From the IMG/VR virus record IMGVR_UViG_2531839448_000004: a DNA stretch of 48,406 nucleotides; one strand, 5' to 3'. The stretch is from a virus (Duplodnaviria; Heunggongvirae; Uroviricota; Caudoviricetes). The notes under the pieces were generated by a model, which was not told the DNA's origin, ran no database searches, and was given only the letters and a program-made list of their open reading frames with translations. The stretch's first letter is position 1. Each line of letters opens with the position of its first letter. Of the stretch, positions 3,180 to 15,613 are shown piece after piece. A program made the translations under genes and the position numbers.

Positions 3180-3407
3180 ATGTTTAAATCAGACGTAATT
3201 AATTTTTACGGTACGAAAGCCAAAGTAGCGAAAGCTGCTGGCGTTGACCCATCTGCTGTTTCTCAATGGCAAGAGCTGGTTCCTGAAGGTCGCGCGATGC
3301 GTCTACAGGAGGCATCTGGCGGCGAGCTTCTGTATGATCCCAAGGTTTATGACGAATATCGTAAGACGAAGCGGGCGGGGCGGTTGAACAATGAAAATCA
3401 CTCCTGA
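3180..3407 (+). CDS. dicC: DicC-like (Cro-like) small DNA-binding protein
   Basis: MFKSDVINFYGTKAKVAKAAGVDPSAVSQWQELVPEGRAMRLQEASGGELLYDPKVYDEYRKTKRAGRLNNENHS; GGAGGTG ribosome-binding site 6 nt upstream; divergent from dicA. Confidence 0.75.
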   Translation: MFKSDVINFYGTKAKVAKAAGVDPSAVSQWQELVPEGRAMRLQEASGGELLYDPKVYDEYRKTKRAGRLNNENHS

Positions 3408-3912
3408 ACAGGCTCGTGAGGCTCTGGATGCCTGGATATGTCGACCAGGAATGACACAGGAGCAGGCGACGATATTAATCACTGAAGCATTCTGGGCTTT
3501 GAAAGAGCGCCCGAACATCGATGTTCAGCGTGTCACAGATGAAGGTGGCGCGGTTGATCAGCGAGCACTTGGCGTTAATCGAGTGAAGATATTCGAACGC
3601 TGGAAGGCTATCGACACCAGGGATAAGCGTGAAAAGTTCACGGCGCTAGTGCCTGCAATTATGGAGGCTATTCGGATTAATGATTTCAGGTTGTATCGTG
3701 AAATTAGTGACGGAAAAAGCATCACGTACATGATCGCCGGGTTAAACAAAGAATATGGCGATGTGGTGGAGTCCGGACTGCTTTTTGCTGATCCTGCCGT
3801 AGTGGATCGTGAAACTGACGAACTTATAGAAAAAGCAATTGCTTTCAAACTTGCGTATCGACAGCAATACCAACAAAAAGCTGGATGGAATTATGAGCCT
3901 TCTTTTTGCTGA
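3391..3912 (+). CDS. Hypothetical prophage early protein, YdaT-like by position
   Basis: 173-aa ORF overlapping the dicC stop, in the slot occupied by ydaT (Rac) or cII (lambda); sequence similarity to YdaT is weak and from memory only. Confidence 0.45.
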   Translation: MKITPEQAREALDAWICRPGMTQEQATILITEAFWALKERPNIDVQRVTDEGGAVDQRALGVNRVKIFERWKAIDTRDKREKFTALVPAIMEAIRINDFRLYREISDGKSITYMIAGLNKEYGDVVESGLLFADPAVVDRETDELIEKAIAFKLAYRQQYQQKAGWNYEPSFC

Positions 3913-4898: not shown

Positions 4899-5318
4899 GT
4901 GGCAAAAGTTTTTACACAAGAAGAGCGGGAAAAAATTAAAGGGCAGGTGGTGGAACTCGTACGCCAGAGTGGGCGCGAGACGTTACGACAACTGGAAGCT
5001 AAAACTGGGGCAACAAGATATCTGATGAGCGTTCTGGCCAGAGAGCTGGTTGCCAGTGGCGATGTATACAGCTCTGGTTACGGGTTATTCCCGTCTGAAC
5101 AGGCGCGTAAGGACTGGCAAAACGCCCGCAAAAAACTCTCGAGGGCAAAGGTGAAGAAACCTGCTGTGGTTGATCCGGACCTTATCTGGTCATTACCTGA
5201 CGGAGAAATACGTCGCTACGACAGTCGTCTAAACATAATCTGTCGCGAGTGCCGGAAGGCAAGGAGAAGCAGGCTATTGTTAACACCAAGCTGTAATGTC
5301 CCCTTTGAACCATTCTAA
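4899..5318 (+). CDS. Hypothetical protein (GTG start); C-terminus may be altered by the adjacent insertion
   Basis: 139-codon ORF with AGGAGG ribosome-binding site before GTG at 4899; ends just before a hairpin and the transposase gene. Confidence 0.45.
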   Translation: MAKVFTQEEREKIKGQVVELVRQSGRETLRQLEAKTGATRYLMSVLARELVASGDVYSSGYGLFPSEQARKDWQNARKKLSRAKVKKPAVVDPDLIWSLPDGEIRRYDSRLNIICRECRKARRSRLLLTPSCNVPFEPF

Positions 5319-5319
5319 A

Positions 5320-6940
5320 ATGTCCCCAGACAATTCTCTGGGGGATTTTTCATGATCAAAGAGACTGTTACGATGAGTCATAAGGAACTCCACCGACTTC
5401 AGATTATTCAGGAGTCAATTAATCGACATATTACTCAGGAACAAGCTGCGGCACGCATTGGCATTTCTATTCGGCAGGTTAAACGTCTGGTGCAACGGTA
5501 TAGAAATGAAGGGCCTTCTGGTCTGGTTTCCCACCGACGTGGAAAGCGTCCTAATAATTCCTTTTCTACTGAATTCAGAGCAACAGTAATTTCACTCCTC
5601 AAAGGCCGTTACGCTGATTTTGGACCTACGTTTGCGTGCGAAAAATTGCGCGAGATACACGGTTTATCTTTATCCGTTGAAACTCTCAGAAAGTGGATGA
5701 TAGAAGAGGGGTTATGGCGTGAACGCCGTCGTAAAATTGCCCGTATATATCAACGCCGCATGCGACGACCATCTTACGGTGAACTGATCCAGATTGATGG
5801 CTCACCTCATGACTGGTTTGAAAATCGAGGCCCCAGATGTACACTGATCGTTTTCATTGATGATGCCACCAGTGCGTTGATGGCGTTGCGTTTTGTGCCT
5901 GCTGAAACAACCCGGGCTTACATGGAAACCCTCCGGGGTTACCTTAATGATCATGGCGTACCGCTCGCTCTCTACTCTGATAGACACAGTATATTCAGGG
6001 TAAATAACCCAGAGCGGGAAGGTGAGCTGACCCAGTTCACTCGTGCGATAAAGACACTGGGCATCGAGCCAATCCATGCCAACAGCCCGCAGGCAAAAGG
6101 GCGGGTAGAGCGCGCCAATCAGACACTACAGGACAGGCTGGTCAAAGAAATGCGGCTTCAGAATATCAGTGATATTGAAACAGCAAATGCATGGTTGCCG
6201 ACCTTTATTGAAGCCTATAACAACCGGTTCGCTACGTCGCCTCGTACTACTGATAATGCTCATCTTGATGTGCACCATTCTGAAGAGGAACTGGGTTATA
6301 TCTTCAGCCTACAGGCGAAGCGCGTTCTGTCTAAAAATCTCACTTTCCAGTACAAAAGCAGTGCGTTTCAGGTACGCAGTGAGGGCCGGGGATATCGACT
6401 TAGGCATTCAGTTGTTACTGTATGTGAGAACTTTGACGGTGAAATTAACGTTCTGTATGACGGGAAAGCGCTGGGCTGGGAAAAGTATGTTGATGGCCCG
6501 GAGCCTATACCACTGGATGATGAAAAGAGTGTCCATGAACGAGTGGATAATGCCCGTATTGATTTACGCTCAAAATACTATGTTAAATCTAAAGCTGACC
6601 ATCCCTGGCTTACGCGCCGAACGCAAAGTCATCAGCAAGTTAAGCCCCCGAAGTTACCTAAAAAGAAGCCTGATCCCGATAAAATAGATTGAAACCAAGA
6701 TCGATTCGGTTGAGTGCATATCCATTCATAGGGTAGATTCTTAAGTCGCGTTTCTGGTGTTCATTTTCGGGTGGTTTGTTACTTGTTTTACCGGGGATAT
6801 GCCAGAAACGCGCTGAGTCAGTCTGGGCGGTGCGCGTAATGAGGCGTTATGGTAAATAGCCTATGCTAATGTCCGCTAAGAGCAAGAAGCGGAAGTTGGC
6901 AGTTTTGTGGACTGTCCCCACAAAAGTGACTACAGAAATA
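5320..6940 (+). mobile_element. Insertion element carrying one rve-type DDE transposase; family and exact ends unresolved
   Basis: A transposase gene lies in phage early DNA flanked by non-coding stretches; TGTCCCCA-containing sequences and hairpins occur on both flanks (5318-5345 and 6915-6940), but no clean terminal inverted repeats were found by eye. Confidence 0.35.
5352..6692 (+). CDS. DDE transposase, integrase-core (rve) superfamily, IS481/ISNCY-like
   Basis: 446 aa; N-terminal HTH (HRLQIIQESINRHITQEQAAARIGISIRQVKRL); catalytic-core signature ...SPQAKGRVERANQTLQDRL typical of rve transposases. Confidence 0.8.
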   Translation: MIKETVTMSHKELHRLQIIQESINRHITQEQAAARIGISIRQVKRLVQRYRNEGPSGLVSHRRGKRPNNSFSTEFRATVISLLKGRYADFGPTFACEKLREIHGLSLSVETLRKWMIEEGLWRERRRKIARIYQRRMRRPSYGELIQIDGSPHDWFENRGPRCTLIVFIDDATSALMALRFVPAETTRAYMETLRGYLNDHGVPLALYSDRHSIFRVNNPEREGELTQFTRAIKTLGIEPIHANSPQAKGRVERANQTLQDRLVKEMRLQNISDIETANAWLPTFIEAYNNRFATSPRTTDNAHLDVHHSEEELGYIFSLQAKRVLSKNLTFQYKSSAFQVRSEGRGYRLRHSVVTVCENFDGEINVLYDGKALGWEKYVDGPEPIPLDDEKSVHERVDNARIDLRSKYYVKSKADHPWLTRRTQSHQQVKPPKLPKKKPDPDKID

Positions 6941-7124
6941 GTTGCAATTCATAATTGATCATGGGTTGTCAGTTAAACTCGTGGCGATTTAAATAGACTA
7001 ATTGGGAGTGCGTCCATTACTTATATCTTGTAATGTTAACTATCAGAAATGATACAAAGATAATATGTCTTTAAAGAAAAGGCTGATGGCGAAAAGTGGC
7101 CCGATGAGGGCCACAATACGGCTG

Positions 7125-7460
7125 TCACTTAGACGTAAATATCAATGGTGCCAGCGGTATTTGTATCGTCTTTTTTCTCTTCTTTTTATCAGGCTGAACT
7201 GTCGCGTCTTTATTCTTTTTCTCTGCCTGCTGCCTTAACAACTGCTCCAGTTGAGCCCTGAGGCTTTCAATTTGCTTCTGTACCAATGCAGCCATTTCTT
7301 TTTTCTGCTGTGTCGTCATCCCCTCTTCCGATGAGATTTTCCCAAGCTTTTCAGTCAGCACCTGAATTTGTCTTGTGATTTTGGCTATTTCTGATGTTCC
7401 TTCCGGGGCGGAGTTGTTTGAAATAACGGTTGAGGTATTTCCCTGAATTGTGACAGACAT
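7125..7460 (-). CDS. flxA: FlxA (sigma-28-dependent prophage protein)
   Basis: MSVTIQGNTSTVISNNSAPEGTSEIAKITRQIQVLTEKLGK... 111 aa, matches FlxA. Confidence 0.9.
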   Translation of the reverse strand: MSVTIQGNTSTVISNNSAPEGTSEIAKITRQIQVLTEKLGKISSEEGMTTQQKKEMAALVQKQIESLRAQLEQLLRQQAEKKNKDATVQPDKKKRKKTIQIPLAPLIFTSK

Positions 7461-7483
7461 AGATTTCTCCTTTTAAAAAAGCA

Positions 7484-7510
7484 CTATCGGCATGCACAAA
7501 AAAATCTTTA
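7484..7510 (-). promoter_or_regulatory. Sigma-28 (FliA) promoter of flxA
   Basis: Reverse complement reads TAAAGATT-N11-GCCGATAG, close to the FliA consensus TAAAGTTT-N11-GCCGATAA, about 25-50 bp upstream of the flxA start. Confidence 0.65.
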
Positions 7511-7955
7511 ATCGTATTTCTTGTGTCATTAATTGTTTGATGTTCAGATTGTTTTCCTCGCGGGCTGGCGCGCCTCAGAAAGTAAAGCTTGTTGACAGGG
7601 GTAAACGTTCGGCAATAATTTTCTGCCGCATGCGGGTGTTGCATAAAACGTGCTACGTTCCTTTATCGACAGGTCAGGTCACCGCTCACCCGCCGACGAG
7701 AAAGCAACACTGACATGCTAAAGCAAAAAATAGATGAATAAGTTGAGTTGTGCATATGTAGCCTGACCGTCACAAAGTATATGGTGTCTGTACCAGTAAG
7801 ATGATGGCCGGACTCTTTAAAAACGAGCTGACCTGCACAATACAGGATGGACTTAGCAATGGCTGCTCCTGGCACAAAGCGGACAGTGATCACCGTTCTT
7901 ACGACTACTTTCTGACTTCCTTCGTGACTTGCCCTAAGCATGTTGTAGTGCGATA

Positions 7956-7981
7956 CTTGTAATGACATTTGTAATTACAAG
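7956..7981 (+). promoter_or_regulatory. relO-like palindromic operator upstream of relB
   Basis: CTTGTAATgacatttgtaATTACAAG inverted repeat 12 bp upstream of the relB ATG. Confidence 0.6.
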
Positions 7982-7992
7982 AGGTGTAAGAC

Positions 7993-8232
7993 ATGGGTAG
8001 CATTAACCTGCGTATTGACGATGAACTTAAAGCGCGTTCTTACGCCGCGCTTGAAAAAATGGGTGTAACTCCTTCTGAAGCGCTTCGTCTCATGCTCGAG
8101 TATATCGCTGACAATGAACGCTTGCCGTTCAAACAGACACTCCTGAGTGATGAAGATGCTGAACTTGTGGAGATAGTGAAAGAACGGCTTCGTAATCCTA
8201 AGCCAGTACGTGTGACGCTGGATGAACTCTGA
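7993..8232 (+). CDS. relB: RelB antitoxin
   Basis: MGSINLRIDDELKARSYAALEKMGVTPSEALRLMLEYIADNERLPFKQTLLSDEDAELVEIVKERLRNPKPVRVTLDEL. Confidence 0.93.
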   Translation: MGSINLRIDDELKARSYAALEKMGVTPSEALRLMLEYIADNERLPFKQTLLSDEDAELVEIVKERLRNPKPVRVTLDEL

Positions 8233-8519
8233 TGGCGTATTTTCTGGATTTTGACGAGCGGGCACTAAAGGAATGGCGAAAGCTGGGCTCGACGGTACGT
8301 GAACAGTTGAAAAAGAAGCTGGTTGAAGTACTTGAGTCACCCCGGATTGAAGCAAACAAGCTCCGTGGTATGCCTGATTGTTACAAGATTAAGCTCCGGT
8401 CTTCAGGCTATCGCCTTGTATACCAGGTTATAGACGAGAAAGTTGTCGTTTTCGTGATTTCTGTTGGGAAAAGAGAACGCTCGGAAGTATATAGCGAGGC
8501 GGTCAAACGCATTCTCTGA
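8232..8519 (+). CDS. relE: RelE mRNA-interferase toxin
   Basis: MAYFLDFDERALKEWRKLGSTVREQLKKKLVEVLESPRIEANKLRGMPDCYKIKLRSSGYRLVYQVIDEKVVVFVISVGKRERSEVYSEAVKRIL; ATGA overlap with relB. Confidence 0.93.
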   Translation: MAYFLDFDERALKEWRKLGSTVREQLKKKLVEVLESPRIEANKLRGMPDCYKIKLRSSGYRLVYQVIDEKVVVFVISVGKRERSEVYSEAVKRIL

Positions 8520-8590
8520 ACCAAAGCATGACATCTCTGTTTCGCACCGAAGGTGACACTTCTGCTTTGCGTTGACAGGAGAAGCAGGCT

Positions 8591-8746
8591 ATGAAGCAGC
8601 AAAAGGCGATGTTAATCGCCCTGATCGTCATCTGTTTAACCGTCATAGTGACGGCACTGGTAACGAGGAAAGACCTCTGCGAGGTACGAATCCGAACCGG
8701 CCAGACGGAGGTCGCTGTCTTCACAGCTTACGAACCTGAGGAGTAA
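8591..8746 (+). CDS. hokD: HokD (RelF) Hok-family membrane toxin, 51 aa
   Basis: Below the ORF-track length cutoff; translation MKQQKAMLIALIVICLTVIVTALVTRKDLCEVRIRTGQTEVAVFTAYEPEE. Confidence 0.85.
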   Translation: MKQQKAMLIALIVICLTVIVTALVTRKDLCEVRIRTGQTEVAVFTAYEPEE

Positions 8747-12010: not shown

Positions 12011-12309
12011 AAAATTCCTTAATACTGATAACTTGGCGCACTATACACACGTTCCTGAAGAAAGCTATAGTTTTTTGATGGGGTTGAAGATGGCTGGATG
12101 TCTAAAATAAACATTGCTTCATATGTTCAACTATGCGTTAATGATTGCGTCGGTTTGAAGAACAGACGATATACGAAGTAGTTTACTAAAGCAGTTCTCA
12201 TTTCAGGTGTTATTCACTTATTCCTTCTTTGAGTCTCTCCAATTAAGTACGAAGTCGTTTCTGTTATGCAAACCATTTATGCCGAAAGGCTCAAGTTAAG
12301 GAATGTAGA

Positions 12310-12525
12310 ATGTCAAATAAAATGACTGGTTTAGTAAAATGGTTTAACGCTGATAAAGGTTTCGGCTTTATTTCTCCTGTTGATGGTAGTAAAGATGTGT
12401 TTGTGCATTTTTCTGCGATTCAGAATGATAATTATCGAACCTTATTTGAAGGTCAAAAGGTTACCTTCTCTATAGAGAGTGGTGCTAAAGGTCCTGCAGC
12501 AGCAAATGTCATCATTACTGATTAA
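12310..12525 (+). CDS. cspB: Cold-shock protein CspB
   Basis: [71 protein letters not shown]. Confidence 0.88.
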
Positions 12526-12807
12526 AATTCATCGCTCGTCTGTATACGATAACGAAGAAGGCTGATGCCTGAGTAGAGATACGGACAGAGTAGTGAATAT
12601 TGGATTTCTTTAATAAAAATTAAGGAGGTCCAATACATGAAACAATGGCCAGCATATTTGGCAAAATCTTAATCAGGAAAAGTATGCTAACCATTGTGGT
12701 GAAGTGCAGGTTTGCTGCATGAATAGTTTTACAGCAGAAGCTAACTGCTGGCATGGCAAAACAAAGTGCGTAAGTGGATGACTCCCACAAAAAGCACCAC
12801 AATCTCA

Positions 12808-14834: not shown

Positions 14835-15197
14835 GGTAATATTAAATCGGAACATTTACATCGCGGAATGTAAAATTTAAATAAAAAGGACTCTTCCATG
14901 AGCCAAAATTCCTGAAATCTTAAGGGTAAGATAAAAGGTCTTAATCAGAATGACACGTTATTATTAATAAATAAAGCTATTCTTTCATTGCTGTGTTTTT
15001 CTTTACAAAAGTAATCCTTGCTATGGGTGGTTAATCATGCGTTAATGGTGTTCTGGTTTGTTACAAATTTATCTGAAGCAGTCATTGTTATAATTTTATT
15101 ATTTGTACCTCTTGAGATTTCCTTGTTGGTTTTTCTCTCTGATATTTTTTTTCGGACCATTCTGCCCAAGGGCTAATTTCTTCAAAAGGTAATAATT

Positions 15198-15410
15198 ATG
15201 TCTAACAAAATGACTGGTTTAGTGAAATGGTTTAACCCTGAAAAAGGTTTTGGTTTCATCACGCCGAAAGATGGCAGCAAAGATGTGTTTGTCCATTTCT
15301 CAGCAATTCAGAGCAACGATTTCAAAACATTAACTGAGAATCAGGAAGTTGAATTTGGTATTGAGAACGGACCTAAAGGTCCTGCCGCTGTTCATGTAGT
15401 GGCGCTTTGA
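15198..15410 (+). CDS. cspI: Cold-shock protein CspI
   Basis: [70 protein letters not shown]. Confidence 0.9.
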
Positions 15411-15613
15411 GGTAGACAATATTACAAACCATATTCACTTTAGATGCCCGTGTTGTCATGGTTCCCAGTATAGAACATCATCTTTTGATGTTTCTGACAT
15501 GAATCCTTTCGGGGCAAAATGTATCTTTTGTAAATCAATGATGATTACATTTGATAATATTTCACAATACTTAAATGCCAGCCGTCTGTCGTTGGATTTA
15601 AAAAAGTGAAAAT

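Follow-up and report, generated by a model that had tools for sequence, protein, structure and literature searches.

A transposase gene and its surroundings were analyzed in a 48,406-nucleotide stretch of DNA (the window) from a virus of the Caudoviricetes, IMG/VR record IMGVR_UViG_2531839448_000004, which has the make-up of a Qin-like prophage. The gene, tnp (5352-6692, + strand), encodes an intact transposase of 446 aa and lies between a gene for a DUF977 protein (4899-5318, +) and flxA (7125-7460, -). Further to the right follow the ydfV open reading frame (7663-7968, -), the toxin-antitoxin genes relB (7993-8232, +) and relE (8232-8519, +) and finally hokD (8591-8746, +), a type I toxin gene identified by its match to the Hok family. 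A first-pass annotation, made from the sequence alone, had described the region 5320-6940 as the insertion of an unclassified transposase with hairpins at both flanks. The presence of an intact DDE transposase of a mobile element between the DUF977 gene and flxA of a Qin-like prophage was confirmed. The proposed boundaries were not, and comparison with other copies makes it very probable that positions 5278-8577 form a single 3,300-bp transposon of the IS1202 family, which contains tnp, flxA (-), ydfV' (-), relB and relE and is flanked by a 15-bp duplication of the start region of hokD.

The transposase carries four overlapping matches to Pfam families of the helix-turn-helix (HTH) type between residues 10 and 116 (HTH_28, HTH_29, HTH_32 and HTH_23) and a weak match to rve_3. 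When it was aligned with relatives of as little as 39% identity, residues D149, D210 and E253 proved invariant. The NCBIfam model for ISNCY family transposases (NF033594) was matched with an E value of 1.2e-139 and 465 bits at a cut-off of 250; the scores for the IS481, IS21, IS630 and IS3 models were all under their cut-offs, and a sequence search against solved structures returned only a marginal integrase-core match (E 0.01). Identical proteins are named 'IS1202-like element ISEsa1 family transposase' in RefSeq, and this name together with the NF033594 match removes the label 'unclassified'. Judged by these matches, the tnp product is a member of the IS1202 family (IS1202 group of ISNCY) of the ISEsa1 type, where the identity with ISEsa1 refers to the RefSeq naming and to a published table. 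A plasmid copy in Klebsiella michiganensis (locus L003) encodes a protein with 100% identity over all 446 aa, and a megablast search of complete Escherichia coli genomes with positions 5000-7300 yielded 776 records with the arrangement DUF977-transposase-flxA. The last 49 codons of tnp are also annotated by PGAP as a gene of their own, ydfW (6543-6692, +), and K-12 ydfW (b1567; locus L083, 6175-6324, -) likewise consists of the last 49 codons of the transposase gene. In strain CV839-06 RefSeq marks the intact 446-aa transposase as a pseudogene, 'incomplete, missing C-terminus', because ydfW is annotated separately at the 3' end of the gene.

The left end of the element was defined by aligning to the window 78 loci that encode relatives of the transposase, taken from contigs of one genome per species. 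The mutual similarity of the copies stops exactly at position 5278 in more than 30 copies that lie in differing contexts, including relatives with 70% identity at the DNA level. The element thus starts with TGTTAACACCAAGCTGTAATGTCCCC..., its TGT at 5278-5280 (TGTTAAC...) falling inside the 3' end of the annotated DUF977 open reading frame. The left terminal inverted repeat (IRL, 5278-5329, +) is built of two direct repeats, at approximately 5278-5303 and 5306-5329 (...GTAATGTCCCC and ...AAAATGTCCCC), each of which ends in AATGTCCCC. The same architecture is seen in a cargo-free relative of 1,449 bp with 62% amino-acid identity, of which at least ten copies are present in Hahella sp. SMD15-11. 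These copies start with TGTTAGCCCAAAGCTGTAATGTCCCC... (TGTTAGC), end with ...GGGGACATTTTAGAATTGGGTTGACA (GTTGACA), have two AATGTCCCC repeats per end and are each flanked by their own 15- or 16-bp duplication.

A right-end pattern derived from the Hahella copies has a single match in the window, at 8553-8577 (GTGACACTTCTGCTTTGCGTTGACA). The right terminal inverted repeat located in this way (IRR, 8520-8577, +) ends in ...GGTGACACTTCTGCTTTGCGTTGACA-3' with the terminal ACA at 8575-8577 (...GTTGACA), and its reverse complement contains the repeats ...AAGTGTCACC and ...AGAGATGTCATG. Nowhere else in the 48 kb is there as good an inverted match to the left end; the identities are 16/22, 19/26 and 22/30 depending on the length compared, and the right end agrees with that of Hahella at 21 of 30 positions. 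The TGT...ACA termini and the imperfect inverted repeats (approximately 22-29 bp) of IS1202 outer ends are therefore both found here. So is, in the layout of the sequence, a second subterminal repeat near each end, and the AATGTCCCC-type repeats, two per end, are presumed to be the binding sites of the transposase. The right terminus also carries a perfect outward-facing TTGACA (8572-8577) and the left end a TGTAAT (5292-5297), 14 nt from its tip; a strong promoter directed into tnp would arise at a circle or end-to-end junction with a spacer of approximately 3 bp, as has been proposed for other IS1202-family members.

Directly outside these ends stand two identical copies of the 15-bp sequence GGAGAAGCAGGCTAT, at 5263-5277 and 8578-8592 (both +), which is present once in the empty site described below. 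Duplications of 15-16 bp flank seven other complete elements as well as ten of the Hahella copies; they were counted with the long duplications of the ISTde1 type (16-17 bp) and are often one base shorter. For the other Enterobacterales copies, a search of the 2 kb on their right side revealed no duplication; the flanks fetched for them were shorter than the cargo. The left end thus lies 42 bp further left and the right end approximately 1.7 kb further right than the bounds 5320-6940, and the failure of the first-pass annotation to find clean inverted repeats at 5320 and 6940, in itself correct, is explained by true ends that lie elsewhere. That annotation had also named two results that would speak against its proposal, a match to a known IS with other ends and a gene that belongs to something larger than an IS. 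Both describe what was found, since the transposase belongs to the ISEsa1 family with a left end at 5278 and is part of a 3.3-kb transposon with a 15-bp duplication. Passenger genes (flxA, ydfV', relB and relE) lie between the ends; the element is therefore a transposon or 'transporter IS' and not a strict insertion sequence.

The duplicated 15 bp correspond to the Shine-Dalgarno sequence of hokD and the first two bases of its start codon, both of which are now supplied to the gene by the right copy. Staggered cuts 15 bp apart, beginning at the GGAG of the hok Shine-Dalgarno sequence, yield exactly the GGAGAAGCAGGCTAT duplication. The sequence around the insertion point in hok genes includes a leader hairpin, a TAGCCTCTTA box, the Shine-Dalgarno sequence and the downstream coding sequence. 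To the left of the window element, a remnant of the hokD leader survives, 28 bp in length (5250-5277, +), with the hairpin, the Shine-Dalgarno sequence and the 'AT' of the ATG, as recognized by alignment to the leader ends in loci L014, L103 and L084. A copy in Shigella flexneri (L014) retains the complete hok leader to the left of the element. The Rfam model for sok (RF01794) covers this flank, stopping at the left junction, as well as the empty site L084 (104-108 bits, cut-off 59), and has no match in the window. The leader and sok that belong to a hok locus are thus present in L014 and L084; the window, where 8591-8746 matches the Hok family, keeps 28 bp of the leader.

A query for the empty site was assembled from the L014 leader, the 15 bp in single copy and the coding sequence of hokD. 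This predicted site was found contiguous in 1,147 E. coli records (100% coverage, 99.1% identity), and the occupied right junction in 1,165 E. coli genomes. Strain CP53 has its empty site within a Qin-like prophage with dicB, Cro/CI and YdaT genes that is without tnp, flxA and relBE, and the homologies of the window and of L014 to this locus meet there, overlapping by exactly the duplicated bases. Alignment to an uninterrupted Qin-like prophage, the check that had been suggested for the locus, thus defines both the junction and the duplication. The element interrupts the start region of hokD and not an early gene of the phage; the empty site is an uninterrupted hokD locus.

The same relation between element and target was found on plasmids. 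In pEnt261 a 3.3-kb unit with 99.4% identity to the window element sits in an R1-like hok gene with GGAGAAGAAGGCCAT on both sides. The IncHI2 plasmid p34977 carries an element of 6,093 bp (tnp, an inserted ISEsa2, a cytochrome-b-like gene, the gene of a CDF transporter and relBE); GGAGAAGAAGGCCAT stands on both of its sides, and next to it comes a Hok gene. An element of 12,843 bp with ncrYCBA, chrBA, hupE and relBE is present in pCAV1151-215, where it is flanked by GGAGAAGTCAGCTATG and adjoins psiB-psiA; its reconstructed empty site is 100% identical in two other plasmids. Metagenome contigs were scanned for the right-end 21-mer, which gave 84 stretches, 80 of which were analyzed. All elements that had both ends on the contig (3,273-3,304, 4,600 and 7,694 bp) showed matching 15-16-bp flanks. 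Among the 36 distinct right flanks of all loci compared, 25 consist of a hok Shine-Dalgarno sequence, the ATG and a Hok reading frame and belong to at least 12 hok variants, and three are tandem copies in which a right end, approximately 15 bp and a left end follow one another.

Several exceptional loci help to narrow down what is recognized. At a hokE-type locus the start codon falls within the duplicated bases, and in L087 and L106 the downstream coding sequence is not hok. As the cut keeps a fixed distance from the leader hairpin both at the hokE-type locus and in L087, the recognized feature appears to lie in the leader rather than in the coding sequence. In one locus (L017) the same 16 bp hold a copy that points the other way. 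Tandems in L018 (Leclercia) and in the metagenome loci L151 and L159 show a right end, 10-15 bp with the hok Shine-Dalgarno sequence and then the left end of a second, sometimes different, element, an arrangement that indicates repeated insertion at the same hok site. The flanks of distant relatives are non-random too. Relatives in Massilia (L052, L057, L059, L056 and L062) abut GTAGGGTG or GGGCAC...GTGCCCACC palindromes, and of the relatives in Hahella (L022, L032 and L023) two copies lie beside tRNA genes and one tandem pair shares its duplication.

A number of observations weigh against the reading of 5278-8577 as a mobile transposon directed to hok. Its inverted repeat is weak, at 22/30 against 20/30 for the next-best chance matches in the window, and is therefore convincing only jointly with the duplication and the comparative data. 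Eight of the 36 distinct right junctions are not next to hok, and approximately one third of the species-level left junctions are non-hok as well (L006, L013, L015, L016, L020, L033, L034 and L072); targeting is therefore not absolute, or these copies have been rearranged. The palindrome at the end of the left arm (see below) has two substitutions in the window copy relative to other copies, so current activity is only putative, and the mobility of this particular element we infer from comparisons alone. The ISfinder entry for ISEsa1 (1,609 bp, 15/22 inverted repeats) was compared by its published description only.

Copies that do not adjoin hok would also be expected if the ends and the duplication are as described, with the hok association being the result of selection or hitch-hiking instead of target choice by the transposase. 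The Hahella relatives, which insert at varied sequences, fit this explanation, as does the consideration that disruption of a toxin gene could be neutral or even beneficial. Selection, however, would not fix the cut to the nucleotide at GGAG across diverged hok alleles, the hokE-type locus and the non-hok loci L087 and L106, and the tandem re-insertions at the same 15 bp (L018, L151 and L159) point to active targeting. Selection or hitch-hiking as the source of the hok association is thus considered very unlikely, and target choice by the transposase is preferred.

The interior of the element is composed of conserved arms and exchangeable cargo. The non-coding 3' part of the left arm (6693-6897, +) ends in the palindrome AATGTCCGCT-N10-AGCGGAaGTT (6868-6897), the limit of similarity across cargo types lying at 6883-6897. 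The fold of this palindrome has a z value of -3.5, and none of 200 shuffles was as good. Positions 6898-7864 hold the Qin-type cargo, namely flxA and the 3' two-thirds of the ydfV open reading frame, which is replaced in other elements by cytochrome-b/CDF-transporter genes or by ncr/chr metal-resistance genes. The conserved right arm (7865-8519, +), delimited by family matches and cross-cargo alignment, consists of a palindrome-like site, relB and relE and is 98.5-99% identical among elements with four different cargos. Only tnp, relB and relE are conserved genes of the element. Plasmid records with the left arm number 832 and those with the right arm 784, and their nearly equal distribution over genera speaks for two arms that belong together. 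No cargo-less junction of tnp and relBE was detected among 168 loci.

The cargo is bounded by two palindromes of the type GTCCGCT-N10-AGCGGAC, at 6868-6897 and approximately 7858-7887 (...AGCGGACAGT), the arms of which are similar to the AATGTCCCC repeats of the ends and which may serve in cargo exchange or in transposase binding. The right palindrome is where at least seven different cargo junctions meet (L081, L082, L137 and L157 are among the loci concerned), and ISEsa2, of the IS110 family, is inserted at the left palindrome in IncHI2 plasmids. The ydfV open reading frame spans the boundary between cargo and right arm at 7865, its first 104 nt belonging to the relBE arm and the remainder to the Qin-specific cargo, and for this reason it may not be a real gene. 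A sigma-70 promoter-like site (7592-7619, +; TTGACA-16-AATAAT, 11/12 matches) lies in the cargo antisense to ydfV and is directed toward relBE.

These boundaries bear directly on ISEsa1 as it is catalogued. The only published treatment found (Harmer & Hall 2023, PMC10132070) gives ISEsa1 a length of 1,609 bp and 15/22 inverted repeats and reports neither an end duplication nor a target. Accordingly, the locus could be read as a simple IS of 1.6 kb between the DUF977 gene and flxA, with flxA and relBE as ordinary prophage genes, and a block of that size (5250/5278 to 6887/6897) is indeed the unit common to hundreds of plasmids. At 6883-6897, however, there is no right-end motif and no duplication. 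Neither for the catalogued length (5275/5278 to 6883/6886) nor at 5320/6940 did inspection reveal inverted repeats. The end of the left arm (6868-6897) was also tried as a right end and rejected, as its reverse complement agrees with the left end at only about 14 of 30 positions (counted by hand), it is without a duplication, and long loci continue into cargo. Wherever the flank sufficed, the 1.6-kb block was followed by cargo, the relBE arm and the right end, and then by a duplication of the left flank. The copies that seemed to consist of 1.6 kb only (L013 and L004-L010) run on into the same cargo or ISEsa2 insertion as complete elements, and cargo-free relatives do make 15-16-bp duplications. 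A simple IS at this locus is thus highly improbable, and ISEsa1 as the databases have it is in all likelihood only the left arm (5278-6897) of the larger transposon. The transposase matches, and the conserved left arm measures approximately 1,610-1,620 bp against the catalogued 1,609 bp. The transposon reading departs from the catalogue in that it places the functional right end past relBE and has a duplication of 15-16 bp and hok as the target. Duplication and target would be absent from the published description because a wrong right end was assumed.

The remaining possibility, that the 15-bp repeat and the 'right end' are merely two hok leaders joined by homologous recombination or duplication, with a diverged leader upstream of hokD, has next to no probability. 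In its favor, hok loci are multi-copy and mutually similar, and the 8-mer GCTTTGCG of the putative right end is also present in the hok leader of plasmid R1. Against it, the right end matches the hok-unrelated Hahella right ends (21/30), at least 12 hok alleles share one and the same junction nucleotide, with duplication copies that agree within a locus and differ between loci, exact empty sites are available for two loci, and reverse-orientation and tandem copies exist. The right end as a mere hok leader was dropped on the similarity to the Hahella right ends and the exact empty sites.

The hairpins that had been proposed to mark the flanks were found inside the transposon. The left hairpin, ccccagacaattctctgggg, occurs at 5324-5343 exactly as first given. 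It is part of a terminator-like structure (5323-5350, +) with an 8-bp stem followed by ATTTTT, the 3' arm of which lies over the tnp Shine-Dalgarno sequence, and it was picked up in a scan for intrinsic terminators. With a fold z value of -2.4 (4 of 200 shuffles as good) it is modestly above chance, and 10 diverged relatives have an equivalent predicted stem at this position. For the right hairpin the ttttgtgg/ccacaaaa stem (TTTTGTGG...CCACAAAA) is present but at 6903-6925 (+) instead of 6915-6938; it belongs to the cargo, occurs only in copies with flxA cargo and is not significant as a fold (z -1.7, 14 of 200 shuffles as good). The motif TGTCCCCA, which stands in the loop of this right hairpin, does occur on both sides as noted (5321-5328 and 6913-6920) but is not enriched, since the three copies in the window compare with an expectation of 1.56, and as many as three were present in 19 of 100 shuffles. 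The first hairpin is located 46 bp inside the left end and the second 1.65 kb before the right end. The right-hand TGTCCCCA hairpin was considered as a degenerate end of the element and dropped, given the chance-level motif count, the insignificant fold and its restriction to one cargo. A guide-like role for the end of the left arm, where GAGAAGCGGACAT resembles the target GGAGAAGNAGGCNAT, was rejected because a 99%-identical left-arm variant sits in hok alleles with differing duplications and there is no co-variation.

The DUF977 gene to the left of the element is truncated at its C-terminus. Its Pfam match extends over residues 1-121, or positions 1-115 of the 134 in the model, and from approximately codon 118 the reading frame runs through the hok-leader remnant and the left end of the transposon. 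Relative to a collinear prophage contig from a metagenome (L103), which has the element and the full leader, the window is without 1,979 bp. The endpoints of this deletion fall in the near-identical 10-mers GTGCCGGAAG, close to the DUF977 gene's end, and GTGCCGAAAG, within the hairpin of the hok leader (window 5249-5258; L103 6144-6153 and 8132-8141), and homology to L103 stops at 5258. The deletion removed the last approximately 20 codons of DUF977, a methylase-like open reading frame, small open reading frames and the region of the hok promoter, mok and sok. Judging from this comparison, the damage to the early region is a separate microhomology deletion that took place later than the transposon insertion, and the earlier suggestion that the early region was inactivated by the transposase insertion did not hold. 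An IS2 element at the left edge of the window, noted in the same context, was verified (TnpB, open reading frame 1-921, +; NF006918, E 1.6e-213). Together with Rfam matches to the DicF sRNA (1459-1510, -) and to cspA-type thermoregulator leaders (12149-12541 and 15052-15437, both +), it is as expected for a Qin-like prophage.

The classic relBE-hokD locus of E. coli can be placed in this framework. In K-12 MG1655, window positions 3279-3670 are joined directly to window position 6508 onwards, by a deletion larger than the one in the window. K-12 keeps only the tail of tnp (the last 185 bp, with ydfW), flxA, ydfV, relBE, the right end, one copy of the duplication and hokD, and from flxA through ydfV, relB, relE, the right end and the duplication to hokD it is 99.8% identical to the window. 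The K-12 relBE-hokD genes ('relBEF', in the Qin prophage) thus have the same right-hand sequence as the window, whereas the left end and most of tnp are missing, which is why the transposon origin is invisible in K-12 alone. From this comparison the K-12 relBE-hokD genes and ydfW appear to derive from a decayed copy of such an element. The position of hok behind relBE is the known relBEF arrangement of K-12, and the insertion probably explains how this locus arose.

The arrangement of the element and its target suggests a simple course of events. The transposase would bind the AATGTCCCC-type repeats at both ends and cleave at the TGT and ACA termini, while the target would be chosen via the conserved hok leader just upstream of GGAG and cut at positions 15-16 bp apart. 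As the landing site follows closely on the hok promoter, the hairpin at 5323-5350 most likely serves to block read-through from that promoter into tnp. Insertion would leave the hok coding sequence behind relBE, parted from the promoter, mok and sok that belong to it; there it could stay translatable on relBE transcripts because its Shine-Dalgarno sequence is duplicated. The relBE genes, in turn, may replace the addiction function of the plasmid or prophage that the insertion destroyed.

Taken as a whole, the proposal is that ISEsa1 is the left arm of widespread relBE-armed cargo transposons that home to the start regions of hok genes on plasmids and prophages, swap addiction modules there and carry metal resistance, with relBE-hokD and ydfW of K-12 as their fossils; that all of this is both correct and undescribed has a somewhat better than even chance. 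No description of a hok-targeting IS1202/ISEsa1 transposon was found in the literature, subscription journals, ISfinder and TnCentral being outside the search, and a recent survey of hok loci does not mention targeting by transposons. As far as could be checked, neither the hok-homing relBE cargo transposon nor the derivation of the K-12 relBE-hokD locus has apparently been described before. The analysis would correct the ISEsa1 catalogue entry and offer a concrete origin for the K-12 hokD gene (relF), which is without promoter, mok and sok behind relBE, and for the orphan open reading frame ydfW. It would add to dif sites a second, quite different target specificity of the IS1202 family and provide a simple one-protein system for the study of TnsB-like target choice. 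It also points to a vehicle that may move nickel, chromate and cation-efflux genes among plasmids of Klebsiella, Enterobacter, Citrobacter and others via homing to hok/sok loci. For annotation, the lesson is that a ydfW call inside the gene causes an intact transposase to be labelled a pseudogene in RefSeq.

Tn7 has TGT/ACA termini, several transposase-binding repeats per end, cargo between conserved arms and a habit of homing to a 'safe' site. The window element resembles Tn7 and Tn7-like elements in these four features, and a comparison with TnsB is made in PMC10132070. It differs in the length of the duplication, which is 5 bp for Tn7 and 15-16 bp here, and no TnsA, TnsC or target selector (TnsD/E or CRISPR) was found in the window element or in the annotated 6.1-kb and 12.8-kb elements, which are therefore not members of the Tn7-like group. 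A parallel is offered by the ISAjo2/ISAba32 subgroup, which inserts at dif/pdif sites, and by ISKpn21 with its passenger gene. There too a single TnsB-like transposase directs strong, oriented and site-specific insertion beside a conserved maintenance site of a plasmid or chromosome, and tandem re-insertions at one site and occasional passenger genes occur. The transposases of this subgroup have approximately 41% identity to that of ISEsa1, and their elements generate duplications of 5-6 bp and insert 5 bp from the XerC arm of dif-like sites (PMC10132070), in contrast to the 15-16-bp duplication and the hok translation-initiation region as target of the window element. ISEsa1 itself is listed on the ISTde1-subgroup sheet in the supplement of bioRxiv 10.1101/2022.12.17.520857. 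The window element shares with this subgroup, whose duplications are 16-17 bp, the TGT...ACA termini, the possession of just one TnsB-like DDE transposase, 400-500 aa long, and a duplication of approximately 16 bp, and by these sequence features it best fits an ISTde1-type assignment. Members of the subgroup have been described as simple insertion sequences without a recognized target, whereas the element in the window would combine the same type of ends and transposase with relBE, a variable cargo and homing to hok.

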